From NCBI GenBank assembly GCA_008632985.1, contig QPGO01000107.1:62001-126000 (forward strand): a DNA stretch of 64,000 nt, read 5' to 3'. The position numbers were made by a program, and so were the translations under genes. Every line of letters starts with the position of its first letter. Position 1 is the first letter of the stretch. This document shows positions 1 to 61,739 of this stretch, piece after piece. Under the pieces are notes generated by a model that saw only the letters and a list, made by a program, of their open reading frames with translations, was not told where the DNA came from and made no database searches. The stretch comes from Psammoneis japonica. Taxonomy: Eukaryota.

Positions 1-21
1 GGGCACCCATCTCACAATTCA

Positions 22-15302: not shown

Positions 15303-15451
15303 CGCTGTCGATGCAGACATGCACATTTCGCACACGTGCACTGTGCAGATTGAAATGGGCTTCCGCAATCTTTGTTGCATTTATTTTGAGCATCGAAAGC
15401 GCCATTGCGGTGTTGTACAAAATTGCAGACAAACATGAATGGGAAGAACAA

Positions 15452-32720: not shown

Positions 32721-35700
32721 TCTGGCTGTGCACCAGTCAGAGGGGAACTGCATGTGGTCAATTGTCCTCAACATGGCCACACATCAAGGCATGGGCATGC
32801 CTGTGTGGTGGTTGGCTGAAGGACATCCCAGCACATTTTTTGCCCAAAGCACCCCTCACAGGCATGGGCTCAGATTCAAACCACAACAAGCTGTGCCCAT
32901 TTCCCCTTTACTTGCACCAGAACCTGAATTTTGGACCTTGGTTGTCCTCCCCAGGTCACCCTCTGCCAACAAGATGGTTCTTGCAAACAGGGGGCAGTGC
33001 CAGAAAAACATGGCTGGGTCACAGGCTTGTTGAGCAGCTGAGCATGCAAAATCATGCATGCAGTACAAAGTGTCTGGACAACTTCACTTGTTTCTCCAAC
33101 AACAAACTGTGAGCAGCCTGTGCTGCCCAGAAGCTGGGCTCCTGTGTTCAAGCTTTTCTGTCAGGGTTTGAAAAGACATCTTTTTCTTTCAGGCTTTCTT
33201 CAGGTTCAACAGAGATCTGTCCATCAGTGCTTGAGTTTCTATTTGCATGCATCTGCCTTTTTCTTGCTGTGGGGTCTTTTGCTTTCAGAGCAGAGCAGCA
33301 CATGAGAAATTCCCCCCCACTCTTCATGTTTTTTTTTGTCTTTGCAGTGCCCGTCAACTTTTTTTTTTTCAACTTGTCCCACCAGGTGGGTTGTCACACA
33401 TTCTTCACCACACTCACTCTCTTCATGGACATGCTTTTCCATGTCAGCTTTACCAAGAAATCCACAAACAACAGCGCCTCTTGTCTGCCAAGTGAGTTTT
33501 GACAATGGCAGCAGCTGTCATTGTTGCTGGCAATGTCAGCCCCTCTCATTGATGCAGTTTTGAGTGGGCAGCCATGGCACATCCTGGTCATTGTGTCCCA
33601 TGACACAGCTGGCAAGATGGGCACAATTTGCTCCATTGTCAGCAACAAAAATTGAAGAGGAAGAAAAACAACAACTCCTTGCTGCTGTCCAAACAGGAGA
33701 TGAGTCTCTGTGCCTGACCATTGCAGGAGCCAAAAGAGATGTGCAGTGTGTCACTTCCGCTGCTGTTGTCATTGTTGAGAGCCATGTGGCTTTAGAGCAA
33801 ACTGCATCATGTGCGTGGTCATGCATGAAACTGAGAGCACACACAGCTGTGTGTGACAAACTAAAACCTTGCACAAATCCCTCTCAATGAGGATTTGCTG
33901 CTTCTTGTCTCAGCTGTCCACTTGCAACCCCTGCGTGTCTTTCCATGCACACTCTCTTCCTGATGTCGCCCTTCTCAGATGGTGTTTTGCTGGGGCCCCA
34001 AAAACCCTTTTGGTCACTTCTGCCAATGGCACACCCTCATTTCAGCATGACATGAAATGATGATTTTCAGTGGAAAATGACCGGCATCAAAGCCTCGTGG
34101 CTCGCATGCTTTTTGTCCCATTTTTGGACATTTTTTGCAGATTCAGCGCATTTTCTGCACAGGATCAAGTGCAAATTCTGCATGCATTGGAAATGCCCAC
34201 TGACAACCAAGTCATCTTCTTTGTGAACTGCTTCCATCTGTGCTCACCAGCCCTCAACAATTTCTTCTTCCCCTGCTGGCCGCTCAAGTTCTTCACCTCA
34301 TGTGGTGGTGAAAGCACTGCCCCTCCCGCAGCTGTGGTGCTTGCAAGTGTTTGTTTGGACAAGCCATTGGCATCACTTGACAATCATCTAATTGCTGCAT
34401 GGTTTGGCATTTCTGCACAAGACTTGACATCAATTCCATGTGAGAATGATGTTTCTTTGGGCGCCCTTGTTGTCACCTCACCGAAGCTCCCTGCTTTGGC
34501 ATGCCTCCTCTGCAACAAGTCCTGAACATCCCTTCTTCTTTGCATTCATTCTGGTGTGTGCAAATGTGAAACTCAGTCAGCCATTTTTGTTGAAGACAAG
34601 ACCCACCCTTGGAAGCAAGGTTTTTCTCCCAGAGTTTGCATCAATTTTGAATCCTCTTCTCATCATGATCATCCTTTGCTGTGGCAGTTTGGGTGCTTTG
34701 CATCCTCTCCAAAAGAAAGCAACAACTTCATTCTTGCACAGTTTCATTTCAACCTCTGGTGCACATGGCTGCAAAACAGTGTGCTGGCCAGCTGATCCTG
34801 TTAGCTTCTCTCTGCTGGTGCTGCACCCCCAGAGTGTGGGGTGCACTGGAAGCATGGATTGGCCAGAGCAGATGTTTCTGGGCAAAGCACTTAAAACCAG
34901 GCTTGGGTTTTTTCATCATGAGGATTTACTTGAATGAAGTCTTCCCTGTGCCAATGAGCAGCTCTCCATGCTTCACGTTCTCTCTAGCAACATTCACAAG
35001 TGAGTCAGTCACGAGTCTGTGTGAGGTCTTTCAGGGCACCTCAAGCTCTGGAATTCATTCATCAGGAATCCCAAAGATTCCCTGCCTCTGCCTTCGCTGT
35101 CTGCACTTGCTCTGATGACATGGCACAGTGGAGGCATCTCTCATCTGCTGATGCAACACATGGAGGTTGTCTGTCACATGTGCAGTGCTCACATCCATGT
35201 GCAGACTCATGTTGTTGCCATGATGAAAACAGTCGCCAGCAGGTGAAGCAATTGGGACATGGGGCTGGGCTTGGAATCACCAGTGCCAAGTGGTTGGTTC
35301 CCTTTTTACTGTGCATGGGGGAAGGAGTGGTGGGTTTTTGATTTTCATTGTTGGTGTCTCCTGGGGAATGTCTCTGACAGCACCATGGTGTCTCCCATCC
35401 TGCCAGACAATGAGGGATCCCTTGGGCTGGCCTCGTTCCCGCTCGTCTTGTCTGTCATCCATCCTTCAACCCATTTCACTTCTGCATTCACACGGTGACT
35501 CTTGGTCCAGTCAAGGAGGTCCTCTCCTTGCTGGGCTTGGAGTCTTGGCAGCAAGAATCCCATGGATTCCCTGCCTCCGCCTCAGCTGTCTGCACTCCAA
35601 TGACATGGCACAGTGGAAGCGTCTCTCATCTGTTGATGCAACACATGGAGGTTGTCTGTCACATGTGCAGTGCTCACATGTCTGTGTGCAGACTCATGTT

Positions 35701-36018
35701 GTTGCCACAATGAAAACAGTTGCTAGCAGGTGAAGCAATTGGGACATGGGACCAGGCTTGGAATTGCCGGTGCCAAGCAATTGGTTCCCTTTTTCACTGT
35801 GTGCAGACCATGCTGCCAACGCGGAATGCTGCAAGCATTGCAAAAGCACTCGTGTCATTGGAGGAAGAGCCAACCCGAAAAAAATGTGCATGTGTTGTCT
35901 TCAGACATGAGGGAGAAACAAATGTTCCTCCTGAACATGTGTGTTTGCACGTGTGTCAGGATCAAATTATAAAATTCAAAATTGAAATTTTGGATGCAAT
36001 GGGACAACAGTGGGTGAA

Positions 36019-37300
36019 TCACATTGCGCAGAGAGGACATGTGGGAAGTGGACACATCCAATCAGCAAGAAAGAAATTAATCAAAGAGAATGGCACAGGT
36101 GCCGCCTTGTCAAGGGCTTGACAATGGGCCTGAGAAAGGCCCAAGCAGTTGCGGAGACAGGCTGCAAAGGCATCAGATTGCCATCTGAGCAGCCATTTAA
36201 TCTGCTCGGCATTGATGTTCATCTCATGAAGAATGTCACAGGCTCCAACATGGAGGGAGTGAGCCAACCATTTGCTGCAAGCTTTTTCATCCTTCACCAG
36301 GTTGAGGTGGCACACCTCTGTGGCAATTTGGTGCATGTGGGCCTTGATTTTCTCACAAGTGACAAGATGGCGGTGCTCACTCTCCTTTGGATCAAAGCAG
36401 AGAGCAAGGGGGCAAACCTTGTTGTCTTTGCCGCACACCCGCATGGAGCATTGGATTGCATGGAGCATCGGCTTTGCCAAGTTGTGAGCACCCATGAGAT
36501 TCAAGGCAAACTGGCATTCCTTGCCATTCTGCATGTTCTTCTGGGCTCATGCTCTTGACATCCTCTTGCTTGGGAACAAGACAACCAGCCCCGGTGTGTC
36601 GGTGCTTGTCTTTGGTGTCGCAGCGCACGTCATCAAGGCAGAATGCACAGGTCTCCTCAAAGATGTTTAGCCTGGGGTTCTCCAGGTCTGAGTGCTCATT
36701 GGACTGCTCCCATTCAACACTTTGCAGGCTGGCCATTAGACTGATCTCAAACCAGTCAGCAACAACCACCTTGATTGCATCCGGGTTGGTTTCTTGCACA
36801 GCATCTGCTGTCAAACGCACACGTTGTTGCATGAGCAACGTGTGTGACTTGCATCAGTCCGGGACCTTCTCATGCCATTGGAGCTCATCAAAAACTCCCT
36901 GGAGGATCCACCCCATCTCAGTGTCCACACTGTCATCCTTGCGGACATCCCAATGATTGGAACCAAACAGAGACACGAACGTGGAAATGTCGTGGATGTG
37001 TTCTTTGATGGCAGCTGAAGAGATGTTTTTACAGTGGACGGTGGCACCGGTTGCTGGATGCAATGCATGCATGGCTGGCACCAGTTGGCAGCACTTCAGG
37101 TCCTTGCCAACCACAGTCATTTCTGGATCTCCTGGGTGCCACTTCACACTCTTGCAAAAGTGGACAAAATGGACTCGGTGGGAACAAGCTGTCCCAAGTC
37201 ACTTGGGATCTGGGGTGCCATTCTGTGCTTGGCAGACAGCTGTGAGGAGAGGAGCTGCAGCAGTTCTTGACTCGGCTGGAAATGATCCCAGGTCTTCAGA
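36019..37300 (-). pseudogene. Tyrosine recombinase of the retroelement (degenerate)
   Basis: CPL..., HSLHVGAC..L......EQIKWLLRWQSDAFAACLR matches the DIRS YR HSLR.G...RW.S..F..YLR pattern. Confidence 0.8.
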
Positions 37301-37821
37301 AAGGGACACTTCCAAAACAGCTGTTCAGAATGGGCACAATGCAAGATCAAGGCAAAAACAGAAGGCAATGAAATGTCATCAGCAACAAAATTTTCATCGC
37401 CAAAGACATGATCGCCATTGAAGTTGGCACGCACACAGTGGAGCAATTCACAGAAAACCCAGACAAATTGTTGCCCCTGTGGTGACTTTGACATTGCTTT
37501 GTTGGACCTGTCAACCAATGCCACATTGTCCAAGCAACTCCTGATGACCAGGTGCAGTGGGACAAAGCCACCCCAGAAGAACTCATGAGCCCATTCTTGG
37601 GTCACAGTCTCCATGTGGACAATTGTTTCTGCCAGCTTGAGCATGATGACAACAAACTCTGCTGCACTGATGTGGACATGTTCTGGCTTGGAGGCCTTCC
37701 TCAGCTAAAGCCCTTTTGTGATGTTTGGTCCCCAGAGAAATGCAAACCAAAATTGGAGTTCAGCACAGCAGGCACCTCTGCCCACGTTGCTGATGTCTCC
37801 AATTGCTTGGCAATGGGGTGC

Positions 37822-39093
37822 TCATGATGTGACACACCCAATCAGCAATGTCCATGGTTCTGGCATGGACTCAACGCAGGATGCTTTTTCTTTGTCACAT
37901 GTCATCGGGATCTCGATCTTCAGCTTGTGGAGGAGCTGGGCTTCGGTGCGCATGAGTGAGCTTGGTGGCCCATTCTGGAGGTGACTCGGCAGTTGGGTTT
38001 CAAAATTTAATTTGAAACTTTGTTGCTCTATGATGCATTTGACAATGGCGCATTGGACAACCATGGCCCAGCGCACAGAAATCTTGAGTGCAAAAAAATT
38101 TGGCCAAGCCCATGGACAATGCCATGTGTGGAATTTATGTTGGCCATTCAGGTTTGATGCATCCAAAAGTGTGCAGCATTGCTTGTCGAGCCAATCTTGC
38201 AGAATTTCAAGGAACTGTTCCCATTTGCACAGGAGCATTCCCACCAACAGCGCTCCAGAGCTGAAGCACCTTCCCAGGGCTTGCCACAGATTTGAGCACA
38301 GTGCATCCAGTTTCTCTTTGCCAAGGAAATCCGGAGTTTCATCGCGTGGGAAACCCAACATGACCCACACTGCCAAGGCACTCACAGCAACGGTTGGATT
38401 CATCAAGTTGCGCATGTCACCATGGAAATTGTTGTCAACGTGGCGCTTGCATGTTGGTGGAAGGCGGTTTCCATCAAGGGACATGCCTGGATTGATGGCA
38501 TCTGCCTCCGCAGGACAGAACAATGCTGCCTCTTCAGCTGCAGGAGGTTTTGCAAATGATGTCATCAGCAGATGCTGCTGGGCAAGTTCCACCACATTGG
38601 GGACCAGCCAGAAGTGTTGAGCAAGGCATTGTTTTGCATTGGCAACAGCATCCCAGTTGCTGGGGTTGGTCTTGTCACCAAAGGTGCAACCTGTCTTGAG
38701 GACGCCAAGTCTGCCCTGGATGCCAGTGTGCATCCCGATGAGGTTTGGGTGGTGCTTCATGTTGCAGAAGGCGCCACTCACATCATCATTGCCAAGGTGG
38801 ATTTCCTTGCATGGGTGGGACATTCGCGTGTTCCAAAACCACACCACAAAGTCCACTTCTGCCAATGGGAACATGATCGGTGGTTCATGCTTCAGGTCCA
38901 GCACATCATCAATTGCCATGCCACCCGGAGTTGCTTGCATTGCACTGTCAAAGACAGTGCATGGGCTCTTGCATTTCTTGTCAAGATCCACCATCCCCCG
39001 AGGGGTGAGGCGGCAATTCAACAAGCATGGAATCAGACGCTGATTGAAAAGCAGTGTGAAACCCTCGCAATTGTTTTTAATGACTGCCACCAA
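37822..39093 (-). pseudogene. DIRS-order reverse transcriptase (degenerate)
   Basis: HLGNDDVSGAF, GCTFGDKTNPSNW, RHVDNNF. Confidence 0.75.
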
Positions 39094-42000
39094 TTTTTGT
39101 CAGGTGCAGTGTCCACAGTCTTGTGGTTTCTGCATTTCAAAGCTGCTTGGAAATTAGCTTCAGAAAAAGCAGCATTGCATTTTGCTGGTGCCCTGTCTTG
39201 GAAGATGCGGTGGACATGTGCCACTGTCTCATGTCTCATCGGGTGCACGACCTTGCACAAAACGGAGTGTTTTCTCTGTGCACTGGTGTTCACCAACGTG
39301 CGGTCCGTGCCAACCCAGTGGACTGGGTTTGCAGGGTTGCCATCAAAATGCAACAGCGCGGCAGTTGTCATTGCAGTTTGATCTGTGTTGACCACTGTCT
39401 CCTTTTGCCATCCCTTGGGGTGGCCTTGCAGAGGATTAAAGTCAACATTGCCATGTTCCCGGACCAGACTCATGAACTCAGCTGCTTCCGGGATGGCCGC
39501 TCCAAAGTTCTCCCAATTGTCACCAAAGATGATTTGGCCAGACAAGCCACTCATGCAATCAATGGGGGCAACAGACATCCAGACTGCAACAGTGGCAATG
39601 CACCCCGCTTTTCACCCTGAATCTTGGACACCAACAATGGGTGAGGTTTCGGGCACTTGGGAAACTTGCAGAAGCATCCCTTGGTGCAGAAACACATCCA
39701 AACACGCTCTTCCTGATCTGATCCTCTCTTCTTGTAGAAAACGGGGCAGGCAGGGAGGCACTTTGCACCCAAAAAGGCAAGCACACCCATCGCCTTGCAG
39801 AGCTTGGCAGTTTCATTGGCCGTTTCCTCCAATGCGTGGCTTCTTGTTGGGAGGTTGAGCAGACTTGGTCACATTGTCCTTCATGCTGCCAGCAGAGGGG
39901 AACACAGAGCTGCCTGGGGGGACAAGGGCGAGTGCAGATGCCTCAGCAAAAGAAAGAGGCTCACCCCGTGTTGTTGCAGTGTTGAGGTCTGCAACGAGGG
40001 ACTTGACCAGAGCTCAAGCATCCTTTGCCATCTGGTGGCTCAGTGGACGCTCGGTTTCAACCACCTGATGGTGCAGTGGAGAGTCCCCAATCTCAAAGTA
40101 AACCTTGATGACAGTCTAGAAATTGTCTGGGATGCCAGCGACCACTGGCTTGGGATCCTTGAGATTCTTGAGCCACGTGCAGCCCGGGTGCAACCAGAGA
40201 ACCTTTGCGCACACATCCAAGGACTTCCACAGCTTGGCATTGTCAAAATCCTTGATCCAACATCCAAAGACACAACAAAAGTTGCACAATGCCAACCACA
40301 AATTGCTGGCAGCATCCACCCTCCCTTGGATGTAAAGGTTGCTTTCCTTCACATCATCGGGGATCTTGCAGTCGGAGCCATCAGCGAGCACCTGATGGAG
40401 CATCCTCCCTTCCTCCTTGAGACTGGCAAAAGAAGATGATGCAGTCCTTGGCAGAAGAAAGGGGAGGATGGACAACTTCATGTGGTGCAAAGCCCAGCTG
40501 TGCTGCAGAGGCTTCTTGGCCACATGAAGCCATGGAAACAATCCATGCAGGCTTTGTTGACGACGGCGCACTTGCAGTGGACCCCAGCATCTAGACTGCC
40601 GTCACCACAGGCTGATGCAACAACAGCCATCTTCACAAGATCTGCAAGGTCACAGTTTGCATTGGCAGCTGATGCATCCTGCAGGATCTTGACTGCTTGG
40701 GGTCTGCAAGCTTGCCCACAATGATCATGGGCAGGTCCTCCGGACCTGTGCCAGCACCAGTTGCTTGGAGCGCACAGAGTGACCAGCGGCAACCAATGTC
40801 ATGCACCCTCAGCTTCTGGTCTGACTCTTTCTTTGAGCCCTGGTGAGGGACATTGATGGTGCAGTTTGGGACCTGACCATTGGTGCCTTGGGCTGGAGCA
40901 CCAAGAGCTTGCACCTGCACAGGCTCTTTGCCACCAAGTTGCTTCCATGTGTCATTTGCAAAGGCATCCATTGTGGCCTTGACTGGAGCATTCCAATCCA
41001 TCAGAGGTTGGAGCATCTGCACATCATTGTCATCAAGATCACAGATCTCAAGACCTGCAAACTCATCAATGACAGCAAAGACATTCTGCTCAAACATGGG
41101 GCTGCCTTCCGTGATGGAGAGACAGAAGCGTTGTGCTGCAGCAACCAGGCCATGCCCTTGGCCCAAACCGCTCTGAGCAGAAAGTCAGTGGCAAGGGATG
41201 CTGGGGGTTTGCTGGGTCAAAGTCAACAGGAAGGGTGATGCCTGTTGGGATTGGCAAGAACATTGGGAGTGCAACAACAGCAGGGTGCTCGGCCCGTCCA
41301 GTGGGATTCCCAAAGTGGAGACAACCCATCAACGCCGGCTCATTGTTGCCGTCATTGCTGACAGGACCGTCAATTTTGTCAGGGCTCAGTTTGCACTTGG
41401 GCAGGTGTTGCCAACAGGACCATGGCCTTGGAAATGAGTCCAGCGGCCAGACATTGGGATGACCTCACCAACTGCATCTGAGAGGCTCCCGATCCACCTC
41501 AGACTCCCATCAGTGTGCTGCCTGGGGTGAGGTTTTGCCACAACTGCAATCTTGCAATTGCAGACCATGTAGAAAAGGTCTGAGGTTGCAAAGACATGGT
41601 CACGAAGCTCCTTCTGGGTGTCATGGTGGACCGTCATTGAGACAGACTCGATCACACCCGTGGAGGAGGGCAAAGTGGCAGAGTGCCACTTCACAGCAGA
41701 CAGCTTGCCACGGTTGATGGCAGCAACATGGGCTTGGCTCATGGTGGAACAACAGGACATCAGAAAACCAAAGGCTTGTCAAATCTCTAAAAAGGAAAAG
41801 TGAGAACAATCACACTGGAAAGCAAAGGACACCAGCATGTGAAAATTGCTCGGGAAGGACAAGCGCTGGCTGATGTCATGTCAGTTCCGCAAACGCAACC
41901 CTCTCCAATTCCTGTGCTTGTCCAATGCACAAAAACAAAAAAGAGTCCAAGTTTCATTCCCACATCATGGGTCCATTTCCTTCACCATTTGTCATCGTGA

Positions 42001-42849
42001 TGGTGCGCATTTCACAAGAAGAACAAGAAAACCCCAAAAATGTGGTGGCAAATTTTGTTTTGACTGAACCCTCCCGGGAACGCATGTGTGCGCATGCAAT
42101 TGACATTGGCCAGACAGAGCTGGCAGCTCCAATCCAATGCAGCACATGAGCACATGAATCTGGATGTCCTGTGTCCCCAAGAGAGGGAAAAATTGGACAC
42201 ACCGAGAGGAAAGGTGATGACCATGGGCTGCAAAGCGGCAAAACGAGGGGCTTGACATGGGAGTTGAAGAACGAGCAACAAATGAACTGAAAAGCCATGC
42301 TGACATTGCCCATGTGAGACTTCAATGGCACTTAGACCACACACACCATTGAAAGGTGTGGCAAAACAGGCCAGAGTGTGAGACAATCCTCGGCCGTCGA
42401 AGCGGCGCCTGACGTGTTCCAGTCCCAGGTGACACACAAAATGACCATCCATTTTGAACACAAATGATTTGTCTCTCATGTGTGTGGCATTTGAATGTAA
42501 AACACTTGGGTGGATGGGCTTTTACAGGCACTTGGAGTGTGAACACACAAACAGTTTTTTCGTTGGTGTTCAATTCCTCATGGGACATGTGTCACAAACT
42601 CCCTCTGAAGACTGAATGCTGGCTGATTGTACGACAGCACATTGGACACTGATTTTCGGTTGCAGGTGGAACACCCACCAGAAGGTCTTGTAGAAAAATC
42701 ATTTAATTTGACACTCAAATGATGGCAACATTTTTGCCGAAAATCATCCGTTGTGTTGCAATTCGTTTGTCGCAATGAAAAACATTGTGAACAGCGTGAA
42801 AACAATGACATTGCAACACTGATGTGAGTCTTGTTGGTGTTGCAAAACA

Positions 42850-44260
42850 TTCAATTTTGGATGGATCTATTGGTTCCTCCTGTCTCAGGTGGAACTCTCC
42901 ACATCAAAGTTTGAAGCCGAAAGATTTTGGATTGCCGCCCTCGCTGCTGTCAGAAAATAGAGGCATGACGATTGCTTGCACCAATCATTTTGCTGCATTT
43001 TTCATCTAAGTGAGTTTTGCGCCGGGCGTCCGAATTAATTGTGACATGTGACGGTTGTTTTTTTTGAAACAGGGTGCCACAGCATGCACTTCTGCGCAAC
43101 TCATGCGACCTGACTAATTTGCGTTGGGGCCAGAGCAGTGCGTGGTGCTGGTTGTTTTCCTTCTGACCGTTCTGTCTTCTGTGAGGTTTCATGAGTTCAT
43201 CTGTGCACATTGATGTTGTCTAATTTGAGGTGCAGCGGCTTAATTGAAAGTCCAAGTGTGCAAAATTTACGCATTTTTACAGTTGTCTTTGCCAAACATT
43301 TAAGTTGTAACTTGCGCCCATTCCATTGTTTCTGTCCATGCTTGTTCCATGGGATCCTTGCTTGCTCCTTCTCCTGACCAGTGCCAGCGACCACCCCGCT
43401 TCGAAAGCCTCAACGGCGGTCTTGAAAATTTTGTTGGTCTGCGGCGTCGAGTCTGGGATGCCCCTCTTGCCGACTTCCATGCGGCACCTCCACACCCACT
43501 TGCAGTGTTCGCCGTGGGCATTGGCAATGGCTTCAGGGTTGCTCCTGATGCACCCCAGTTCTCCCAGCGCGGGGTGCCAGAGGTCGGGATGATTCGACGC
43601 ATCCTTCATCATGCACATGGCCTCCTGGAAATTTTCGGATTTTTTGTGCCGCCACAACCAGCCCCACAAATCGAGTGACGGATCGTTTGGGTCTGGATGT
43701 TGCTTTTCCACCTCTTCTTCCTCTTCCTCTTCCTCCATTGCTTTCGTGGCCACTTTGGCCGCAGGCTTGGCTGCCTCCTTGCTTTTGCTGCCGTAAAGAG
43801 CCAGGACCTCTGGTTTCAGGACGGTGGCCTGTCCACCCAAAACCTCGATCTTGCAACCAGCCAAAATGAGCTGCTTGGCGGTGTGACCCAGCTGCTGTGC
43901 TTGTTCTTTCAAACCACAAATTTGAAAGGTTGGCTCCGGCAGCACGGCTTTCTCCCTGTTTTCACTTTGGGGCTGTGCCGGCTTCTCCAAAATCCTTTCG
44001 CGTTCGGACTCGGCGGACACACCCTTGGCACTTCCTGCGGCGCCAAGTGCAGTCATGGCCACTGCCGCTGCAGTCATGCCTTCGGTGCCCGTGGGTTCTG
44101 CCGCAACTTCCGGAGCTGTCACGTCCTCTGCTTTGACAGATGGAGTGATGTTCTCCTCTGCCATTCTGCTGTTTCTAAAGCAACAACAATGACGTCGTGA
44201 TGACGAGGCGGCATGCTTGCTGCTGTGTGCTGTGTTCCAGGCATTGACGATCCCCATCCT
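42850..44260 (-). mobile_element. Insertion related to the 2694-3718 repeat tail, nested in the Ngaro-like element; ORF 43277-44257 of unknown function
   Basis: Reverse-complement homology to 3140-3715; both encode ...KHGQKQW; CpG retained, unlike the flanking DNA. Confidence 0.65.
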
Positions 44261-45737
44261 TCTACGTGCGTAAATGCATCACACCTTGCACCGAATTCGA
44301 CGTGCGCAATGCACCCTGCCGCTCCCGAGTTGCTCAACGGCCCGCCTCTGCTGCTTGTCGCGTGACAGCGCACGCCCTCACTGCTGGTGCATGGCATGTC
44401 TGCACCTGCATGCGTCGTCTGCACTGCATGCTGCGGCACCACAGCGCCACATCAAAACTTCGTTGATGTTTGTTTTTTGCTTTCTTTTCCTTTTCTCTTC
44501 TTCTTCTGGCTGGGAGGAACTGCTTGATGGCCTGGGTGTGCTTTTGGTGGTGAAAGCTTGTTTGTGAGTGAGAGACTGCGCAAAAATTGCACAAATGTCA
44601 TTTTTGTGCACGATTTGGGTCGCGTGTGGCTGGAACACATCCCCTGCTGTGAGCGGACCCAATCAGGATTTAGAGCAATGCCCACATGACATGGCGCCAA
44701 AATGGCATGACCGCAGTCAGCACAAATGGAAGAAAGGTGGGAGGTGCATCCACAGGATGGTGTGCTGAAATGGCGTGGTGACAACAGCGCCAATGCACGA
44801 GAGACTCCCGGCTGCAAAAGCAGACCACGTTGGGGATTTCTGATGTAGACTGACAGGGGGAGAGAAGAAACCATTCGATTTTCATCATTGGCATCTCCCA
44901 GGAGACGGCTCCGACAGCACCATGGTGTGTCCCACCCTGCCAGACAATGAGGGATCCCTTTGGCTGGCCTCGTTCCCGCGCCCGCTCGTCTCGTCTGTCA
45001 TCCGTCCTTCAACCCATTTCGCTCCTGCATTTGTGCGGTGGCCTCTCGGTCCAGTCAAGGAGGTCCTCTCCTTGCTGGGTTTAGAGGAGGAGTCTTGGCT
45101 GTGAAATGCCTCTCGCACAAAGCACGCAGAATTGCACGGCGAAGGCATTCTGCGAAAAGACAGCGCGGGGTTTGCCCTTCAGCTCTTTGGGGGAAGTCTC
45201 CAGCCAGCCAGCTGCTGGCTGAAAAAAGTCTGCTCGTCAGTGCGTTTGGGGGGTTTGCCAGTGGAATTTTCACGCACGCAAAAGACGATGAGTCTGTCCA
45301 GCGTTCACCAAAACCCCCTAACGCACAGATTGACAGACTCTTTCAGCACAAATTCTGCACAAGATCACCCCTGAGCAGGAGGGTTCTCGTGTCAGTTGGT
45401 TGGGTGTGCAGTGCTTGGTTGATTGCATGCAATGGTTCGAATTGTCTGGCATTTCATGCACAATCATGTTGACAATTTATCTTCGTAAATGTGTCCAATG
45501 TGACGAAGACAAGATACGAGCACGCCCAACTCCTTTTTCAGATTCACCCCTCTGCGCAATTCACACGGCCAAATGTTTGCGCATTGCTGTTTGAGGTAAA
45601 AATGTCACAGGGTTTGAGAGAGAGAGGTGTTTCTCTTTTTTTTTTTTTCTTCGACAACAACCTTCCGGGTTCCTCTCAATGGTCACGTGGAATCGCACAC
45701 AAAACAAGCACTAGAATTTACAATCGAGGATCAAAAC

Positions 45738-48329
45738 ATGCCGCTGTCAACCATGGCGAAGAACCGCCGCTCCGCTGCCAAGCGGCCCGCAACCAACCAA
45801 CCAGAACACAACAGTCGTGCTTCTAGTCGAGGTGCAAAGCGTTCTGCCTCCAAATTGGACTTTTCTGATCCTGAAGAGGACTCACAAAGCCCGCGAGAAG
45901 CCGAGGAGCCGCAGCCTCAGAAACTTGTCATTCACTTCAACAAAACCGTGTTTGTTCCAAGCAAAAAGGGATCATCCAAAGAACCAAAGCCAAAACTCTC
46001 CGAATTCAAGTTTGAAACTTTGAAGCCGAGTCGTCAGTTTGACACAGCTGCATCATTCACCGAGGAAACAGTGCCCCCCATCACTGCGCACATTGAAGCC
46101 GATGGTTGCTCCGCTTGCGACGAGCTTCCCGGCGGTGCATTCATGTTCACGAGATGCACCGGGAGGAAGACTGATTCCAACCGAGCAATGATGAAGGTAG
46201 AGGTTGTTGATTCAGATGCAAAGTGGTTTGAGAAAATCCATTTGGCAGCTCAAGAGTGTCAAGAGGAGCTGGACGGACCGCTGCATTGCGAAATCGACAT
46301 TGTTGCTGTGGCAGTGGAGGCCATTGCAGCTGAGGGTTCCAATGCATCTGGCTCATCCGTGGACTCTAATCTGTTGGAAGTTCCAAATGCACCAGAGATG
46401 CCGCTGAAGCTTTTGATGTCTTTCTTGGAGCCTGCTCAGAAAGACCCGAACGACTCTGCTCGTGTCACCTCAAAGACAACTCCGATTTGCGACGCAGAGT
46501 GCGATCTTTCGCGTTTCAAGCCAAACGGATCAGTGAGCACAAACCAAGATCTCTCTACATTCAAACTGCTTCATCTGAACAATCATGCCTGCCACCCATT
46601 CTCTTTTGTCATGCAGAGAAGTGAGGAGGACATGTCCCAGCTCTCGCACTCGGACCGCGATGACGACGACGACGACGAAACAGAGACTTTCACGTTGACA
46701 AGGTTTTTTCGTGATGTGGTCGAGCTTGCTGCATCAAATCCTAAACTGCAGAAGCACTGTGGGTGGGACAAGAGTGCGGTTGGGGAAGACTCCAAGTTGT
46801 GGTTCGCAAAGAACCACAGCTCGTCCGACCTGCAACTGTTCAACAATGGGGGGGAGGCCATGGAGTGCTTTCGTTCAGAAGCAGGCATCAAAAAACGAAT
46901 CAAGGCAGTCAAGAAAGAGAAATGCCTCAAGATCCGTCTCGCAATTGGTCTCATGAACGAACAAGACATCCCTCTCGAGCACGACAAGTTCCGCGTGGAT
47001 CCTCCATCATGCTCACAACCTGAATCGCAAGATGGCGAACCCCATCCAACTTTTTTGCCCGGAACAAAAATTGCACCACAAAGGGAATCGCAGCAGTCGA
47101 AAGACAGGCCGGTTGTCATTTCCACCTTCATTGAAAGTCCACAAGGAGACGCCGAGAGTCCGGCTCAACACGGAATGCTGAAGGAGCATGGGGACATGTT
47201 GTTCACCTGTTTTGCACATCCTTCACGGTTTAAAGAAGTTGAATCTGCAAAGTTGGAAGATTGTCCAGCTGACAAACTCAACAGAATTGTTCTTGGAGAC
47301 AGGCACAGCATCAAGAATTGTGGGGGTGTTCCAATCGAGAAGGGCAAATTCAAGAAGCGATGTGGAAAGTTTGTCACGCTGGCGGAACACAAACATGAGA
47401 ACCCGGACGAGACGGACACAAGAGGAGTGGCAGGAGGAGAGACAGGAGGATTGACAGGAGATGTGGCTGCACCATCTGTTCTTGGTCAATTCTTGTCTAA
47501 TCAACAATTGTTGCAGCTGGGCAGAGCGAATGTTCCAGTTGCACCTGCTCCTCAAGCTTCTGCTCCAGCTGCACCGGGGTGCCCAACTGAGTTGGTTGTC
47601 AAGCTCAAGCAAATGAAGCACCGCAATCGGCAAGACTTTCTTGTTCTCAATGAGGAACAGGCGAACACTGCGATGATCAACGATTTGCTTTCCATGCTTG
47701 AAGAAGAGAGCGAACCATTTGAGTTAGACCAGCACATTGAAGGCGAAGCGTGTTCAAAATTCTTTCTTCAAGTTGAAGGTGACGATGAACCTGTTTTGAT
47801 TGGGAAAGACAAAACAAATTCTTGGTCCATCTCGAAACTCCGGCGAGTTTTCAAATTGAAGGAATCATTTGATTTGTTGGCAGAGTTTGGTTCGGCACCA
47901 GCGAAAGACAAGCCACGCTTCCGCTTCAATCGCAAGACACTTTTAGAAGAACAGACATTGGGGACTCATCTTTTGCTGGTGCAGTGGCGAAATTGCTGCT
48001 CTGGACACTGCTCGAGACCAGATGTTTGCCAATCAAGTTGTCACCACTCAAAACTGGCTAGAGTGCGCCACTCGATGCGATGCGATAACACAAGCAGAGA
48101 CCATGCTAGACTTGACCACCCAACAGACCACACGACACAACTAGCTGGAGACTGGCCAGACCACACTGCTCGATGCGACACCACTGGAGACTGGACTGTG
48201 CTGCAGGAGACGACAGCACTCAAGATTGGATGTTCACTTCTTGGGCAATCAACCTTGAACACTCTAATTCTCCATCCCCGGCACCCCGCATTTTCGAAAG
48301 TGCTTCGCTGCTGTGTTGGGAGTCACTGA
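45738..48329 (+). CDS. Unknown transposon-borne protein; the true end is probably near 47950, with read-through after stop loss
   Basis: Long ORF with no Tyr and acidic/basic low-complexity tracts; no recognisable domain. Confidence 0.55.
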   Translation: MPLSTMAKNRRSAAKRPATNQPEHNSRASSRGAKRSASKLDFSDPEEDSQSPREAEEPQPQKLVIHFNKTVFVPSKKGSSKEPKPKLSEFKFETLKPSRQFDTAASFTEETVPPITAHIEADGCSACDELPGGAFMFTRCTGRKTDSNRAMMKVEVVDSDAKWFEKIHLAAQECQEELDGPLHCEIDIVAVAVEAIAAEGSNASGSSVDSNLLEVPNAPEMPLKLLMSFLEPAQKDPNDSARVTSKTTPICDAECDLSRFKPNGSVSTNQDLSTFKLLHLNNHACHPFSFVMQRSEEDMSQLSHSDRDDDDDDETETFTLTRFFRDVVELAASNPKLQKHCGWDKSAVGEDSKLWFAKNHSSSDLQLFNNGGEAMECFRSEAGIKKRIKAVKKEKCLKIRLAIGLMNEQDIPLEHDKFRVDPPSCSQPESQDGEPHPTFLPGTKIAPQRESQQSKDRPVVISTFIESPQGDAESPAQHGMLKEHGDMLFTCFAHPSRFKEVESAKLEDCPADKLNRIVLGDRHSIKNCGGVPIEKGKFKKRCGKFVTLAEHKHENPDETDTRGVAGGETGGLTGDVAAPSVLGQFLSNQQLLQLGRANVPVAPAPQASAPAAPGCPTELVVKLKQMKHRNRQDFLVLNEEQANTAMINDLLSMLEEESEPFELDQHIEGEACSKFFLQVEGDDEPVLIGKDKTNSWSISKLRRVFKLKESFDLLAEFGSAPAKDKPRFRFNRKTLLEEQTLGTHLLLVQWRNCCSGHCSRPDVCQSSCHHSKLARVRHSMRCDNTSRDHARLDHPTDHTTQLAGDWPDHTARCDTTGDWTVLQETTALKIGCSLLGQSTLNTLILHPRHPAFSKVLRCCVGSH

Positions 48330-49415
48330 AAGCAACGCCCCACAGTGCAAGTCTTGCCAATCCGCCTGATGACCCTCAAGTTGTCCATGGCGACGGAGGT
48401 GTGCTTCACACACTGAAAACATTTTTTCAATTGGATTGAGGTCGGGACTGCAGGGTGCAGTGTACAGCAACCTCGCGTTCTTCTTTTTCTCTGTCAATCG
48501 TTTGATGCGATGGTCAAAGTGCGTCGATGCGTTGTCCATCACTGCCACCGAATTTTTCTCTCCTTTTTCACAGTCACCCAGCTGTGGTGCCAAATGTGTT
48601 TCTGCCCATTCACAAAATCGGTCTGAGTCCACAGTTCCTGCTGCTCCCTCATCACTGACATTGTCTCTCCTGACGGTGTCACAAGCTTCAACAACAAACC
48701 CATTGATGTTGCAAGCTGCAAGGCATGTGTGGCACACTGCATCCTGGAACCATTTCTTCAAAACAAGGTCTTCGTTGCGCACCCCCCAAGCCCGATGGCG
48801 TCCAGCAGCATTCTTGTCTTTGTGTGTCTCGTCGCAAAAGATCACTTGACATGGGTCGAAAACAAAAAGTGCCAAAGCCACCTTGTGCTCATGTCGGAGT
48901 CGCTCGTTTCTCTCCCTTGCAACGGCAGCGTGTGTCTTTAGAGAGTGTCCCAATTTGTCATGAAGGGCTCTCCAGACAGTGGACGGATGAAACAGAGTCC
49001 CAGCTTCAACGCACAGATCGTGGACAAACTCATCAAGATGATGCTCAGGATTGCGCTCAAGAATCTTTCGAAGGGCTTCGACGTGCCTTGGACGAAAGTG
49101 CCGCCCTCCTTGCCAAGCCCCAGCGGACCGTCTCAAAAGTCTTTTCCACTCTCGTGACGTGTCGAATGGCAGTTCTCCATAAAAGAGACAGTGCTTGTGC
49201 CAACGCCGGAGTTGACGTGCACCAGTGCGAAACATCCTTGCGCCCTGCCTCAGCACGGCGGCGAGGCTTGCCGTGCCTGCCATCAGTTGGACCTGATCAA
49301 CAACGCATGCAGTGGCATCTCTTTGAGTCGTTCGGGATGCCTTTCCAAAAGCAAGCCCTGCTAGAGAGAGCAATGTGATGAAAAACGCGAACAAACGGAC
49401 CGGCTTCATTGCCAT
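48264..49415 (-). CDS. IS630/Tc1-like DDE transposase (DD35E), hypermutated
   Basis: HLDE...STVWRAL HTH, FCDET, VMDNASTH, APCSPDLNPIEKMF (=PYSPDLNPIE); 35 residues between the second D and E. Confidence 0.9.
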   Translation of the reverse strand: MAMKPVRLFAFFITLLSLAGLAFGKASRTTQRDATACVVDQVQLMAGTASLAAVLRQGARMFRTGARQLRRWHKHCLFYGELPFDTSREWKRLLRRSAGAWQGGRHFRPRHVEALRKILERNPEHHLDEFVHDLCVEAGTLFHPSTVWRALHDKLGHSLKTHAAVARERNERLRHEHKVALALFVFDPCQVIFCDETHKDKNAAGRHRAWGVRNEDLVLKKWFQDAVCHTCLAACNINGFVVEACDTVRRDNVSDEGAAGTVDSDRFCEWAETHLAPQLGDCEKGEKNSVAVMDNASTHFDHRIKRLTEKKKNARLLYTAPCSPDLNPIEKMFSVCEAHLRRHGQLEGHQADWQDLHCGALLSVTPNTAAKHFRKCGVPGMEN

Positions 49416-49711
49416 TGTTTCTGATCTTGTGGTGGCTGTTTCTCAAAATCTAGCACTTATTTTGTGTACGATTCTACGTGACTATTGAGAGGAACCCGGA
49501 AGGTTGTTGTCGAAGAAAAAAAAAAAAAAGAGAAACACCTCTCTCTCTCGAACCCTGTGACATTTTTCCCTCAAACAGCAATAGAGGCCCCTGCTCAGGG
49601 GTGACACAAGATTCTTCAGCCAGCAGCTGGCTGGAGACTTCCCCCTCCCCAGCCACATTGCTGCCTGCTCGCTCGTCGCATTTCGTGATTCGTTGCTCGC
49701 CGCTGTTGCTC

Positions 49712-50577: not shown

Positions 50578-51038
50578 AGCTACAAGGTGCCCAAGGCAGA
50601 GATAATGTAGCGTTTTTGCTGCACAACTAGAATATAGTATGTGTCTATTATCCCCTCCACGAAGATTCTACTTCTTGCCCGCAAAACCCGCGTTCTAGAA
50701 AGTGGTGGAAATCCCAAGAACATTTCAGGTTTCTATCACAAGTCCAGCCGAACAACGGCTCGAAAGAGTGGACTATGAAGTACGAGGTTGATTTATATGA
50801 AGCTGAAGTCCCCAATCCAAATCAAGCATTCTAAATAAATTTTCAACGTTGTACAATACATCAGTAAGACGCTTATTTCTGTATTATTTTGATTCTCGCT
50901 ACAGCTGGTGGATTTCGATTCATGATTATTCCGTTCTTCTTCTTGTCCCCCGGAGACGAAGCGAACAAGCGAGCGAGCGAAGCACGCGCTCGGGCGGCAC
51001 GCACGCAAAAACTAACACAAAAAGTAAAGAAAGCGAAA

Positions 51039-53104
51039 ATGACAATGGTGTCTGCAACCCAAGCTTGGGCCATATTGGCTCGCCACGCACGGGATGAAAT
51101 TGCTCCCTTACGACTGCAAGAGCTCTGTCGCGATACTGACCGTGTCTCGTCCTTGGTAACGGTGTACAACACGAGTGAAACTGCTGCATCGTCCAAGAAT
51201 AAACGCAGGACGACACACGACGACGAAAATCGCATCCTCTTGGTGGATCTATCGAGACAAAGAATGACAATTGACACCATCAATCATTTGATGAGATTAT
51301 CGACATCTCGAAATGTAAAGGCATTCATCCAAAAGTTGGCGTGGGGACAAAACAATCCGAACGATCCGGTGGTTCCGAAAAGGTCTCGGCGTAACAACAA
51401 TGGATCGAGCACCGCCTTTGAAGACAATGATCGCTTTCGTCCAACTACTACTCCAGGGGATGACACGTCACCCAGTATGCACTTAGCTCTGAGAGCTCCT
51501 GCAGGTTGTGGCCTGGTCATGTTAACTGAGGATGGGCATAATGCGCTACATGACATACACTATGAGTGGGAACGAATTGAAATGCTCTCTGACTCGATTC
51601 GTAGAGGAAAGCTGAGAGGTGTCAGTGGAAGCGTCCTTCACGATGTACTAGTAGTTGGCAGTGGAGTCCCCGTCATGGCGTTACGATTTATATACCAGGC
51701 ATTACTCCATGACAAAACAGCTCATAATGCAACCACGGCTGTGGATGGAGAGGGTGGTCGACATCGACGAGCGGCAGGGGGTCCAAGGCGACGTCTTCGT
51801 TTTCTTTCCTCCGTCGACCCGATTGCGTCATCGTCAGCTCTATCCGGCCTTGACCCTAATTCCACGATTGTTTTTGTCAGTGATTTGCAGGGTAACGAGG
51901 AAGTCGACCATGTCACTCGAACAGCAAAGAGCTGGTTGTTGCAAGGTCTCGGTACGAACAAGAGACCAGACCTCATCTTTCACAAGCATCTGATGCTTTG
52001 CACTGGGAACAAGGATGTCGCTACTGGCTACACACCAGAGAGTGTATTTTTGATACCTGAACATTCTCGGTGTGAGGCGTTCACAACATTTACACCTGCG
52101 ACGTTACTCGTAAGTGGTTGATTTTCGTACAATCGCTCTCAATTGTGGCATAAACGCCTGTACTCATCCTAATTGATGGCATGCATAACGCAAAGCCTCT
52201 ATCTATTGTGTTTGGTTGGAAACTTGTGGAGCAGTTTTTGTCCGGTGCGCATGACATGGATACACACTTTGTTGAGACAAATCCACGGCATAATCTCCCC
52301 GTGTTGCTGGCTTTATCTGATGTTTGGAATGATAAATGTCTTGGTTCAGCTGGTCGAGTCGTGACTCCTTTTACAGAATCCCTTTCAGCATTTCCCTCAT
52401 TTGTCGCTGCCCTCGAGGCCCAGACTTGTGGCAGAAAGCCCGACGACGGTGTGGTAGATGGACAATCCTGCTGTGCAATAGTGACGGACGGCGGACTTTG
52501 CGGTGTTTATGATCGTGCACTCTATCAGAGTGGACGTGTGGCGTCTGCCGAACTTGTAATGACAATGGACACTCAGGCCACAACCACGTACTCTGCTGAG
52601 TTGGGACTGGAAGGTGTGGATGGAGTGTTAGCAAGTCAAGATGCTCTAATGTGCTCGTTGTTTGCTCACGCGGACACAATGGCGTTTGGGACAGAAGGGT
52701 ACTCATCGACACGGCGAACGACTGAAATGTTTGGCTCCGGGTCTCCGAGCAACGCGGCGACCGCGAACTCTGACGTTACCGAGGGAAATCGACCAAGTTC
52801 AATCCTAATGTGTGGGAAATGCGATGCCTTCACGTGTGGGCAGTTGGTGGCGTTGTCTGAGCATCGAGCTGTCGTCAAGGCTCATTTATTGGGTGTTGAC
52901 CCATTTGTAACTTCGATAGGATCATCACTTCGAACGACTTCATTCGACAAACTAAAAGAAGAGCTTCAAAAGATGTACTCCAAGCCCGTTGGAGAAAGTG
53001 ATGATGAGAATGATCTCCCTGACTTGAATCTGTCAACTTCCACAATCCTCGGGCATTACGCCAACCTTATGCGCGATCAGAGAATATACACTGTAAAAAG
53101 TTAA
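51039..53104 (+). CDS. Divergent glucose-6-phosphate isomerase-like protein; intron 52110-52195
   Basis: LLVDLSRQ, MHLALRAP, IRRGKLRGVSG, FLSSVDP, FLSGAHDMDTHF, NLPVLLAL, GNRPS, GQLVALSEHR. Confidence 0.8.
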
Positions 53105-58197: not shown

Positions 58198-59587
58198 CCG
58201 TGATAATAAAGAAAAGTAAGAAAGGTTGTATTCTTGATGTTGTCTGTTTCGGAATCGATTTTGTGAGATGTTGTTTGGATTCTCTTTCCAAAAAAGAGTT
58301 TGCAGATGGCGTGTATCATATGATATGAAGATTTATTCGGGGTTCGGTTGAGATCGAAGATTGTGACACATTGAGAGAAACTTACCGTAAGATCCTATGT
58401 AATGTTGGCATCAAATCATCGGGGGGTGAAGATTGAAGATAACGACATTGTGCGAGAAAATTAGCATTAAAATGTTGGAACAGATCGTTTCGCAGAATGA
58501 TGCTGACAAATCAGAGTTTGGGGTTCGGATTTGTGGCTGGCCGTCGACATGGGGCTGTGCCACCGTACGATTACGAGCAGATGCGAATGCCGATGATTTA
58601 TTCATTCTGTGCTGTAAAACCCCACTTCGCTTGCAGTGACGTGCATGCCAGCTGTGCCGCAGCATGCAACTGGCCAGCTGGAGAGAGCATGCACATCACA
58701 AAACTTCCCCGAGACATCGCATCAACAACGACCCAATGGACAATGGGCAAAAATGCAAAAGACAACAAGATGTCTGCAGTGGGGCCGCACCAGCCGACAC
58801 AACTGTGGCTGGTTGACACAGCGCAAACTTTGCTGGCTTGTTCCAAACTTGGGTGGCGCACTCATGCCCATTTTCGCACAAAAAATGAACATTTTGTGCT
58901 TCACATGACATCGCGGACATTTTGTTTGAATGATCACATCAATGGCTTTTGGGCAAATTAAAAAGAGCAAATTCGAGCCAACAAACAGCCAAAAGCCATG
59001 GCTTTCAGCAACCATGACGGCCCTTTTTTCAACCTCAGCATGACAAATTGAATGTCATGATGAGGACCACAGCATTTGACACAGTCTGTGGCATCTGCCA
59101 CAATGATGAAAATGCTTGATGCAGGCTGCAGCTCGGCACAAGAAGACTCAATCTGTCAGCACCAACAATTGAGCCTCAGCTCACTCACAGTTTGCCTCCA
59201 AGGTGCATTTCTTTTCCATTTCCATGTGCATTTCCTCCACAACATGGACTCATGCAAGTGTGCCAGTCATTTGTGCCGACAGAACAGTGAAAAAGGGTCC
59301 AAAGTCGACGCCATTGCGTTTTGCTCAGCTTCACTTCTTCTCACGTCTTCCGAAACTTGCCAGTCAATGTGTGTTTTGTTTGGTCCATTGAGGCCAACTT
59401 GTGCTCACACATGTGGATGAAACATTGCTCATGTCTTGTTAGAGAGTGTGCTGGCATGTGAGAATGATCGTCAATGTTGTTCATTGATGCGCAAAAACAG
59501 CCACAAATCGCTCATCGGAAAAAAGAGCTCTCATCTCACGGCGCAATTCAGTGATCAACAACTCAGTCCATCCTCAGTTTCTCATGC

Positions 59588-60230
59588 ATGTGCAGCATGC
59601 ATGCAGACAAAAGGTCTTTTGTCATGCCCTTTGTGACATTTAAAGGCTGCAGCACGTCGCCGTGATGCATTGGCTCTCATTGGCAGCTGTGTGTTGCACT
59701 CCTCCCCATGCATCACGTGTCCATGCGGCTCTTTGCTGACGTGTGCTGACACTGCACGGTTTTGGTGGAACAGTGTGGGTGCGTATGAAGGAACACACAG
59801 AACTGCGCTGCACAGAGTTTTGCGCATTCGACAGTGATCAACATTGCTGCAGACAACTCCCACTCAGGGTTTCGAACCCCTGGCCTCCTGCCTGATGGTT
59901 GCGATGAACCACTCCGCTGTGAATTCACAGCGCAGCATGCATGCAGACAAAAGGTTGTTTTGTCACGCCCTTTGTGACATTTGAAGGCTGCAACACGTCG
60001 CCGTGACATCAACTCTTGTTGGCAGCTGCACACTGCACATGGGCGCATGCATGAGACCTTTCTGCATGCACCCACAACAACACATTTGAAGATCATCATG
60101 CGCCGTAAGTTTGGACTGTGCGTTTGTGTGAAAAGTGGCATTTTTTTGCACGCGAGGGCACCCAAGTCTGTGCATTTGTGCGAAAAGTGGCACTTTTTTG
60201 CACGCGAGGGCACCCAAGTCTGGAACAAGT
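59588..60230. repeat. Local duplications: 59588-59720 vs 59932-60040, and two ~52-bp tandem units at 60117-60222
   Basis: gcagcatgcatgcagacaaaagg...tttgtgacattt occurs twice; gaaaagtggca.ttttttgcacgcgagggcacccaagtctg occurs twice. Confidence 0.8.
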
Positions 60231-60771
60231 CTGCTTTGGAAGTCACTTGATTTTTAAAGTCTGCTGCACTGCTGGTGTGCGTTGCTCTGTTGTGAGCCTC
60301 TTTTTTTTGCTGAGTTGGCAGCGCTTGGCCCTCCAGCACAAATTCTGCACACGCTTCTGCACTCATCCTCCGCAGCCACGCTGTGGTTTGTGGCCTGTTC
60401 CAGCTCCAGGTGATGCGCACAGGCTCGATTCCCATCACTGGCCCATTTTTGCATTTGGCACAATGAACTCCTTCAAAATCATTTCTTTTTCCAAATCGAT
60501 GGGTGAGTGCACACAAAACTTTTGTTTTTTTGTGTGCGCTCACTTTTCGATTTTTGAAACGATCAAATTTGAAGGAGTTCAATGTGCCAAACTGCACAGA
60601 AAATTGGCCTCTCTTGTGAGATGGATTGCTCATCACCTGGGGCTGGAACAGGCCTTGCCAGCTCTTTGGGCTCTGGCTCTGACTTTTTGCACTGAGCTCC
60701 CAAGTGGTTTGACATTTTTTGGCTCTGCTCTGCGGCTGTTCTTTCTGCAGGGTGAGTTGTTGGTGCAAACT

Positions 60772-61570: not shown

Positions 61571-61739
61571 GGTTGTTCACAGCAACAGATTGTGGCGGTT
61601 GAGCCATGTGGTTTGGCAACCTTTCTGAGTGACAGGGATCTTTCACCCACAAGCATCAGAGCTCTCTCATTTGACATCAGAAAGAACAGGAAATGCTCCT
61701 GTCATGCTTGAAGCCAACAGCCCACAATGGCTTGTTCAA

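Follow-up and report, generated by a model that had tools for sequence, protein, structure and literature searches.

Why do the two copies of one target-site duplication in a diatom genome differ in their first letter? The duplication lies in a 64,000-nucleotide stretch of Psammoneis japonica DNA (contig QPGO01000107.1, positions 62,001 to 126,000; hereafter the window), in which an insert of 4,238 bp (45366–49603) separates the two parts of a miniature inverted-repeat transposable element (MITE), here called MITE-A. The left copy of the 9-bp duplication, GCACAAGAT (45357–45365, forward strand), begins with G45357 behind T45356, whereas the right copy, ACACAAGAT (49604–49612, forward strand), begins with A49604 behind G49603 and hence outside any TpA. 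An intact MITE-A copy (4235–4445, forward strand) serves as the empty-site reference and reads TTCT-ACACAAGAT-TCTTC at 4397–4414, with the 9-mer at 4401–4409. The initial annotation quoted these three strings, all of which we recover in place, and proposed that the A became G after the insertion, and only in the copy in which it follows T. We find this interpretation supported, mainly through evidence that lies outside the focal pair: the mismatch is probably the footprint of a regional, TpA-specific A:T-to-G:C hypermutation (TpA to TpG or CpA) acting in transposon-rich blocks.

TpA is scarce in the window as a whole (observed/expected ratio (O/E) 0.31), and CA and TG each stand at 1.43. The distribution is bimodal: among 64 bins of 1 kb, TA O/E is below 0.2 in 32, at least 0.35 in 27 and intermediate in just 5. 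TA content and the sum of CA and TG are strongly anticorrelated over these bins (r = −0.87), and CA/TG O/E is 1.64 in TA-poor bins versus 1.19 in TA-normal ones. Four TA-poor blocks (at about 1–3600, 14400–20800, 31800–49400 and 58600–64000) contain 161 TA in 33,003 bases, against 1,139 in the 30,997 bases outside them, and TA O/E is zero in several 500-nt stretches. The focal locus sits in the third block (31800–49400, about 17.6 kb), in which 1-kb values of TA O/E run from 0.02 to 0.19 between 32001 and 49000 and whose right edge falls near 49,450, within the right inverted repeat of a Tc1-like transposon nested in the insert. The insert itself holds 30 TA where 266 are expected (O/E 0.11).

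The direction of the changes can be read from four pairs of repeat copies, in which the TA-rich copy was taken as ancestral. The TA-rich copies of these pairs carry 34 TA, of which 13 have become TG and 10 CA, 3 are kept and 8 meet gaps or other changes; a TA in the TA-poor copy opposite a non-TA partner was seen only once. Replacement of A by G affected 24 of 64 positions after T, compared with 12 of 150 after A, 9 of 127 after C and 8 of 143 after G. Without the old pair formed by copies of a phosphoglucose isomerase (PGI) gene, which are 74% identical, the corresponding counts are 15/37 after T, 1/95 after A, 4/64 after C and 0/70 after G, so that in the three young pairs A became G at 15 of 37 positions after T versus 5 of 229 in the other contexts (Fisher p = 7.8e-11). 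The mismatches of C with T before A are likewise one-sided, with the T in the intact MITE-A copy in 5/5 cases, in the right inverted repeat in 4/4 and in the arm at 13798 of a second element in 6/6. The triplet changed most often is TAC (15/29, versus 9/35 for the rest), and the focal change is T-A-C to T-G-C. Among the pairs, T-A-pyrimidine changed in 17 of 38 cases versus 7 of 26 for T-A-purine, a trend only (p = 0.19). The TAs that survive are found mostly in TTAA (23 in the blocks versus 43 outside), CTAA/TTAG (41 versus 88) and CTAG (20 versus 47), and the contexts nearly lost are ATAT (0 versus 81), ATAC/GTAT (2 versus 179) and GTAC (7 versus 95). These figures hint at a preference for T-A-pyrimidine, the comparison of survivors being confounded by coding content.

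Protein sequence gives the same polarity. Within the insert, an ORF of 383 amino acids (48264–49415, reverse strand) encodes a Tc1-like DDE_3 transposase (PF13358, E = 1.8e-14) that is open but hypermutated. It has 110 relatives, at most 46% identical to it and all listed with PF13358, and the named ones come from diatoms or marine samples. Its three DDE residues (D195, D294 and E330) are invariant. At the columns on which at least 60% of 21 homologues agree, 116 of the 162 conserved residues other than Tyr are kept (Phe 5/5, Trp 5/5, Asn 6/6 and Ala 12/12 among them). Tyrosine, by contrast, is kept in one of nine conserved tyrosine columns, the others holding four His and four Cys (p = 4.6e-4 for the other residues versus Tyr). 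Because the changes TAY to CAY and TAY to TGY are TA to CA and TA to TG, TA has been lost rather than gained. Loss of tyrosine extends to other frames in the blocks: 7 of the 18 tabulated ORFs have a TA O/E of 0.04–0.11 and 0–0.6% Tyr, whereas the other 11, among which are all the host genes assigned to a Pfam family, stand at a TA O/E of 0.43–0.58 and 1.0–4.3% Tyr. The seven are the transposase ORF, a PIF1-like helicase ORF, an orphan frame termed ORF1 and the frames at 18482–19852, 37822–38994, 43277–44257 and 59713–60633. Ordinary divergence combined with CpG decay of C-to-T polarity was considered as an explanation and rejected on the TA O/E, the loss of Tyr from ORFs and the transposase Tyr columns. 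One pair of duplicated letters cannot show the rule that A mutates only after T, which the initial annotation drew from it, but the window bears the rule out elsewhere: in the A-to-G counts after T of the young pairs, in the 23 of 34 TA that became TG or CA, in the 8 of 9 tyrosine columns now His or Cys, and in the TA O/E of the window and the insert.

The history of the focal site depends on what inserted there. A BLAST comparison of the intact MITE (4230–4450) with the window matches 45188–45365 (90.5% over 179) and 49604–49645 (100% over 42), and both matches overlap by exactly nine query bases (4401–4409). Given that the 9-mer is single in the intact copy and double around the insert, as GCACAAGAT on the left and ACACAAGAT on the right, the repeat is a true duplication and not a chance resemblance. 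The left part of the split MITE-A copy (45188–45365, forward strand) is hypermutated and has 1 TA, versus 7 in the left 175 nt of the intact copy; three of these seven sites are now CA, two are TG, one is deleted and one is kept. The remainder (49613–49645, forward strand) is identical to its intact counterpart, but both contain 0 TA and 0 CG, so this perfect identity is uninformative on mutation pressure.

The insert consists of two elements, one inside the other. The outer one, MITE-B (about 240 bp), comprises a left part (45366–45581, forward strand) and a right part (49584–49603, forward strand), with a 14-bp terminal inverted repeat, CACCCCTGAGCAGG, at 45366–45379 and its partner at 49590–49603; this 14-bp end has just two matches in the window. 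The inner one is a Tc1/IS630-like DNA transposon of 3,998 bp (45584–49581, forward strand), which carries the DDE_3 gene and has terminal inverted repeats of 136–138 bp (45583–45719 and 49445–49582, 92.8% alike). It is flanked by a probable TA duplication whose left copy (45582–45583, forward strand; from the window sequence and contig joints) is now CA and whose right copy (49582–49583, forward strand) is still TA, a layout that agrees with the Tc1 rule of insertion at TA. Evidence on other copies comes from the assembled contigs of a single sample that contains this DNA, chiefly those of run X1, runs X2 and X3 adding 9 and 0 contigs. In one contig 45581 is followed directly by 49582, and in another 45582 by 49583; 4,000 bp are missing from both, and the evidence of these joints is thin, with 22 letters on the short side of each. 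The first joint leaves a single TA at the unoccupied Tc1 site. The joints indicate that the Tc1-like element is nested within MITE-B, and the nesting explains why a Tc1-type gene stands beside a 9-bp duplication, which had looked anomalous: MITE-B, not the Tc1-like element, would have made the duplication. Insertion of the Tc1-like element at the focal TA of MITE-A was also considered and rejected, because the element end would then have to match eight target bases by chance. The nested element resembles the Tc1/mariner (IS630–Tc1–mariner) group in its DDE_3 transposase, its terminal inverted repeats and its probable insertion at a duplicated TA, and differs in that one TA copy is now CA, in its second, orphan ORF of 863 codons and in best relatives that are just 46% identical.

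The polarity proposed for the focal change holds across the copies compared: A is present in the intact MITE-A copy, in the right copy of the duplication and in at least eight contigs of the sample (six whose match starts at 49604, behind ...TTTCT, and two in which 45356 is joined to 49604), and G at 45357 stands alone among these. One of the contigs may be the intact MITE-A copy itself. The dating of the change to the time after the insertion follows if the duplication is 9 bp long, which is very probably the case (see below).

The initial annotation added the caution that the right copy lies at the less-mutated edge of the block, and this caution is correct. TAs persist at 49451–49483 and at 49582, and the TA duplication of the Tc1-like element, with CA in its left copy and TA in its right one, indicates that the right edge escaped mutation regardless of context. 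Survival of A49604 therefore does not test context, and this A would probably have survived whatever letter preceded it. The focal pair is a confounded control, not a clean one.

Such edges bear on how the process is aimed. The MITE-A family is abundant (summed contig depth is about 5,000–8,000 on the MITE versus 200–600 inside the insert), yet its intact copy, which lies next to a gene, is unmutated. That copy sits in a TA-normal region (TA O/E 0.53 and 0.71 for the 1-kb bins covering 3001–5000), directly upstream of or overlapping the RNase P p30 gene. Moreover, two elements are mutated in one of their inverted-repeat arms and spared in the other, which lies on the gene side (the 4/4 and 6/6 one-sided mismatches given above). 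An unmutated copy of an abundant MITE, together with elements in which one arm is spared, implies that targeting follows domains and not copies. The second of these elements (13798–17792) has 175-bp inverted repeats and contains relics of a PP2C gene and a split protein-kinase gene, both without Tyr. Seven TA remain in its left arm, beside a host gene, and one in its right arm, so a block edge passes through this element as it does at the focal locus; its flanks share at most GATT, which is not informative as a target duplication.

Mobile-element ORFs (DDE_3 and PIF1-like) are TA-poor and the host genes with Pfam families are spared, and the blocks also contain dead copies of host-type genes (PGI, PP2C and kinase). 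A PGI copy at 31888–32727, inside the focal TA-poor block, is 74–85% identical to 51214–52029. Its stretch at 32259–32727 has 0 TA and 3 CG, compared with 15 TA and 29 CG in the matching part of the live gene, and this hypermutated fragment indicates that dead copies of host genes were struck as well as transposons. The live gene (50922–53104) appears as two ORFs, 50922–52121 and 52181–53104, which cover successive parts of the Pfam model and are probably one gene with a short intron.

CpG is depleted alongside TA: mean CG O/E is 0.51 in TA-poor and 0.95 in TA-normal bins, TA and CG are correlated (r = 0.77), and 22 CA/TG double differences separate the repeat copies. These parallels suggest that the domains targeted by the TpA process are also those of cytosine methylation.

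The second ORF of the nested element, ORF1 (45738–48329, forward strand), has 863 codons, 0.0% Tyr and a TA O/E of 0.09. The searches for its relatives returned no Pfam family, no atlas match, no word-indexed relative and none among 1.84 billion representatives. ORF1 is probably a hypermutated relic, open in part because TAA and TAG cannot arise in it. Further long open frames at 22–1941 and 18482–19852 (both forward strand) and at 37822–38994 and 59713–60633 (both reverse strand), one of them with a PIF1-like helicase domain, have 0–0.2% Tyr and a TA O/E of 0.04–0.09. These Tyr-poor frames look like 'ghost' ORFs, held open by the removal of TAA, TAG and Tyr codons.

Some observations weigh against a history of TpA hypermutation at this site. 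The focal event is a single site, and support for the 9-bp duplication comes from contig starts at the left end only. True TAs survive near the right twin, at 49451, 49458, 49467, 49475, 49483 and 49582. The CpG depletion in the blocks represents a second process running in parallel. Between the contigs and the window copy, places with C-to-T or G-to-A differences (208) outnumber those with A-to-G or T-to-C differences (144), an excess that fits a window copy that is the more mutated one and fits equally an ordinary C-to-T decay in the other copies. At 46035, two contigs have TAG where the window has CAG in frame with ORF1; either this is an ordinary C-to-T change, or erased stops have produced the start of ORF1 as an artefact.

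The length of the duplication is the point on which the first rival explanation turns. The perfect inverted repeat at the insert ends is 15 nt long (45365–45379 and 49590–49604, T45365 pairing with A49604), so two fits can be drawn: 14-bp ends with a 9-bp duplication that contains a mismatch, or 15-bp ends (T...A) with a perfect 7-bp duplication, CACAAGA, that would leave G45357 outside it, perhaps as a MITE-A variant older than the insertion. The 7-bp repeat fits the intact copy equally well. It needs two coincidences, however, namely that the terminal T of the element equals the base after the repeat and that its terminal A equals the base that other copies have before it. In addition, MITE-B copies exist elsewhere in the sample, and eight contigs of run X1 have 45366, and not 45365, as the first letter of their match, behind upstream sequences that differ among themselves (consensus agreement 0.46) and end in a consensus C, not T; starts at this letter behind unlike flanks favour the 14-bp end and the 9-bp duplication. 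We therefore hold the 7-bp duplication to be improbable, and even if it were true, the G would still be a TA-to-TG change in a hypermutated block and only its dating would be lost. Nor does an ordinary background transition, placed at a TpA by chance, account well for the mismatch, even though transitions dominate all of the repeat comparisons, A-to-G and T-to-C places are common among the copies (81 + 63 of 466 places in run X1) and a claim about context cannot rest on one event. The same process is in evidence around the site: the left half of MITE-A has lost six of its seven TAs, and the excess of A-to-G changes after T in the young pairs makes a TpA process far likelier, so that chance becomes a very improbable account.

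The conventional polarity would make G the ancestral letter and the right copy the changed one, by repeat-induced point mutation (RIP) or decay of 5-methylcytosine (C to T, turning CpA/TpG into TpA). CpG decay is clearly active here (the double differences above, and a YpG mismatch at 64 of 480), and the CAG/TAG difference of the other copies points the same way. This account nevertheless demands a gain of Tyr at eight of nine columns in all 21 homologues instead of one loss, separate strikes on the intact MITE-A copy and on the right inverted repeat where a single contiguous block would suffice, and a G-to-A change after G in the right copy, although at least eight contigs have A; the TA-rich copies, furthermore, are ordinary (TA O/E 0.45–0.6) and show no excess, and it is the TA-poor copies that are near zero. 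We consider it exceedingly improbable. Foreign DNA that arrived TA-poor, or removal of TA by selection and not by mutation in place, would suit the transposon genes and orphan ORFs of the blocks, but the window contains both states of the same sequence (MITE-A, the PGI gene and its fragment, and the two arms of one element), the blocks include host-type PP2C and kinase pseudogenes with 0 Tyr, and the flanking host MITE is mutated too; the likelihood left to this account is next to negligible. A rival of another kind accepts the TpA footprint and places the event on thymine, modified or miscopied (for example, oxidised T pairing with G), instead of adenine. TpA is its own reverse complement, so adenine-side and thymine-side chemistry are indistinguishable from sequence: TA to TG and TA to CA are one event seen from either strand and are about equally common (13 and 10), and the flank preference can be put in terms of either strand. 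In dinoflagellates, T is replaced by 5-hydroxymethyluracil preferentially in TpA and TpC, a precedent that favours this route, whereas we know of no modified-thymine system in diatoms. Authors who described TpA hypermutation in Bigelowiella natans favour an ADAT2-like adenine deaminase, as a candidate only. On balance the thymine route is unlikely, while deserving more weight than the other rivals taken singly.

Regional TpA hypermutation, our preferred and probable explanation, gives the locus the following history. MITE-B, with its 14-bp inverted ends, inserted into a MITE-A copy and duplicated ACACAAGAT, and the Tc1-like transposon sits at a TA inside MITE-B, where it may have arrived either before or after MITE-B moved. 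Later, the block from about 31.8 to 49.4 kb was struck, including the left half of MITE-A, MITE-B and most of the Tc1-like element. In this strike A45357, then within 5'-T-A-C, became G; its twin A49604, after the terminal G of MITE-B, is no substrate and also lies beyond the heavily mutated zone. The data demonstrate the duplication, the polarity of the change, its specificity for TpA, the division into blocks and the loss of Tyr codons, whereas the targeting and the chemistry are inferred. The process may be aimed at silenced or foreign chromatin domains and not at repeats as such, as the B. natans work proposes for that alga. Its chemistry may be enzymatic deamination of adenine in DNA at 5'-TA (A to inosine, read as G), an assignment that we offer tentatively and at a little under an even chance. 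Proteins of the ADAR and ADAT2/TadA kinds convert A to inosine, read as G, as proposed here, and their normal role is on RNA. The natural target of TadA is the A of a U-A-C-G loop; in the window, TAC is both the triplet most often changed and the context of the focal site. ADAR favours U before the edited A, as cited in the B. natans preprint (bioRxiv 10.64898/2026.01.13.699255).

The closest known system is that of B. natans. In mutation-accumulation lines of this alga, two integrated viral regions gained 231 mutations, of which 230 were A to G or T to C, all at TpA (Mettrop et al., bioRxiv 10.64898/2026.01.13.699255). Coding sequences poor in TpA show an enrichment there for DDE endonuclease and reverse transcriptase, the authors put forward an ADAT2-like deaminase as a candidate, and the word diatoms has 0 occurrences in the text consulted (bioRxiv 10.64898/2026.01.13.699255). 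Common to that system, as described there, and to the window are A-to-G and T-to-C changes at TpA, clustered loss of TpA with gain of CpA and TpG, and foreign or mobile targets. B. natans is a chlorarachniophyte (Rhizaria), whereas the window is from a diatom. Depletion in B. natans is modest (Rho 0.45 in a region from a nucleocytoplasmic large DNA virus (NCLDV); 124 clusters in about 95 Mb), whereas here half of 64 kb stands at an O/E of 0.02–0.2; the targets there are regions of foreign origin, and here they are DNA transposons, MITEs and copies of host genes, with CpG also depleted. Rates in B. natans were obtained directly by mutation accumulation, whereas here a long-term footprint alone is seen; a present-day rate about 1000-fold higher in the target regions, in some lines only, belongs to the description of that system. 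No report of TpA hypermutation in diatoms was found in the literature searched; one article that matched the search words, PMC9258296, is unrelated to it in the part available. The process is of a kind known from one preprint; the lineage in which it appears here is new for it, and its intensity is far higher.

Fungal RIP offers a second comparison. It too fills mobile or duplicated DNA with transitions at one dinucleotide, in blocks, and disables transposase genes, but it runs in the opposite direction, turning CpA into TpA, whereas the process here destroys TpA, and RIP creates stop codons, whereas here TAA, TAG and all Tyr codons are removed and long open 'ghost' frames remain. RIP is triggered by duplication; no such dependence is seen here (the MITE-A copy is untouched and the arms of single elements differ), and the host is not a fungus. 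CpG decay by deamination of 5-methylcytosine likewise turns a self-complementary dinucleotide into TG or CA and co-localises with the TA loss, although it concerns another base and dinucleotide, and CpG loss is partial where TpA loss is near total.

Several further features of the window were recorded. MITE-B relatives share their terminal ~83 bp and differ inside, as five contigs follow the left end to 45448 and then enter a common different sequence (agreement 0.77), and others skip 49–80 bp at 45437–45518. A repeat of about 580 bp (3105–3688 versus 42865–43376, on opposite strands; 78–94% alike in three pieces) lies roughly 0.5–2 kb from each MITE-A copy and is inverted relative to the MITEs. 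A metagenome scan with the MITE-A end returned one locus, in a gene of bacterial appearance that matches by chance. A TA-poor islet at 8235–8689, made up of two tandem copies of about 228 bp (87% alike) with 0 and 3 TA, lies between two host genes in TA-normal surroundings. The best matches of the host aminotransferase of the window are 72–79% identical, and the named matches listed are all diatom proteins.

With somewhat more doubt than confidence, we propose that a DNA-editing defence aimed at chromatin domains exists in diatoms, where it converts TpA to TpG or CpA with a preference for T-A-pyrimidine, operates alongside CpG methylation decay, keeps transposons and dead gene copies silent and leaves Tyr-free 'ghost' ORFs; it would be the same system as in Bigelowiella, and hence either old in the stramenopile–alveolate–rhizarian group or repeatedly acquired. 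If the footprint is read rightly, a mutational genome defence of opposite polarity to fungal RIP operates in diatoms, which are major marine primary producers with working genetics, and the sole description so far is a 2026 preprint on a distant alga. Because hypermutated transposons are free of TAA and TAG stops and of Tyr codons, their long frames stay open, and gene callers will annotate these as orphan proteins. TA O/E provides a simple map of silenced domains and their edges, and the duplication and inverted-repeat pairs that straddle such an edge, twice at this locus, let events be ordered in time. The domain-following targeting seen here constrains models of how the process is aimed.

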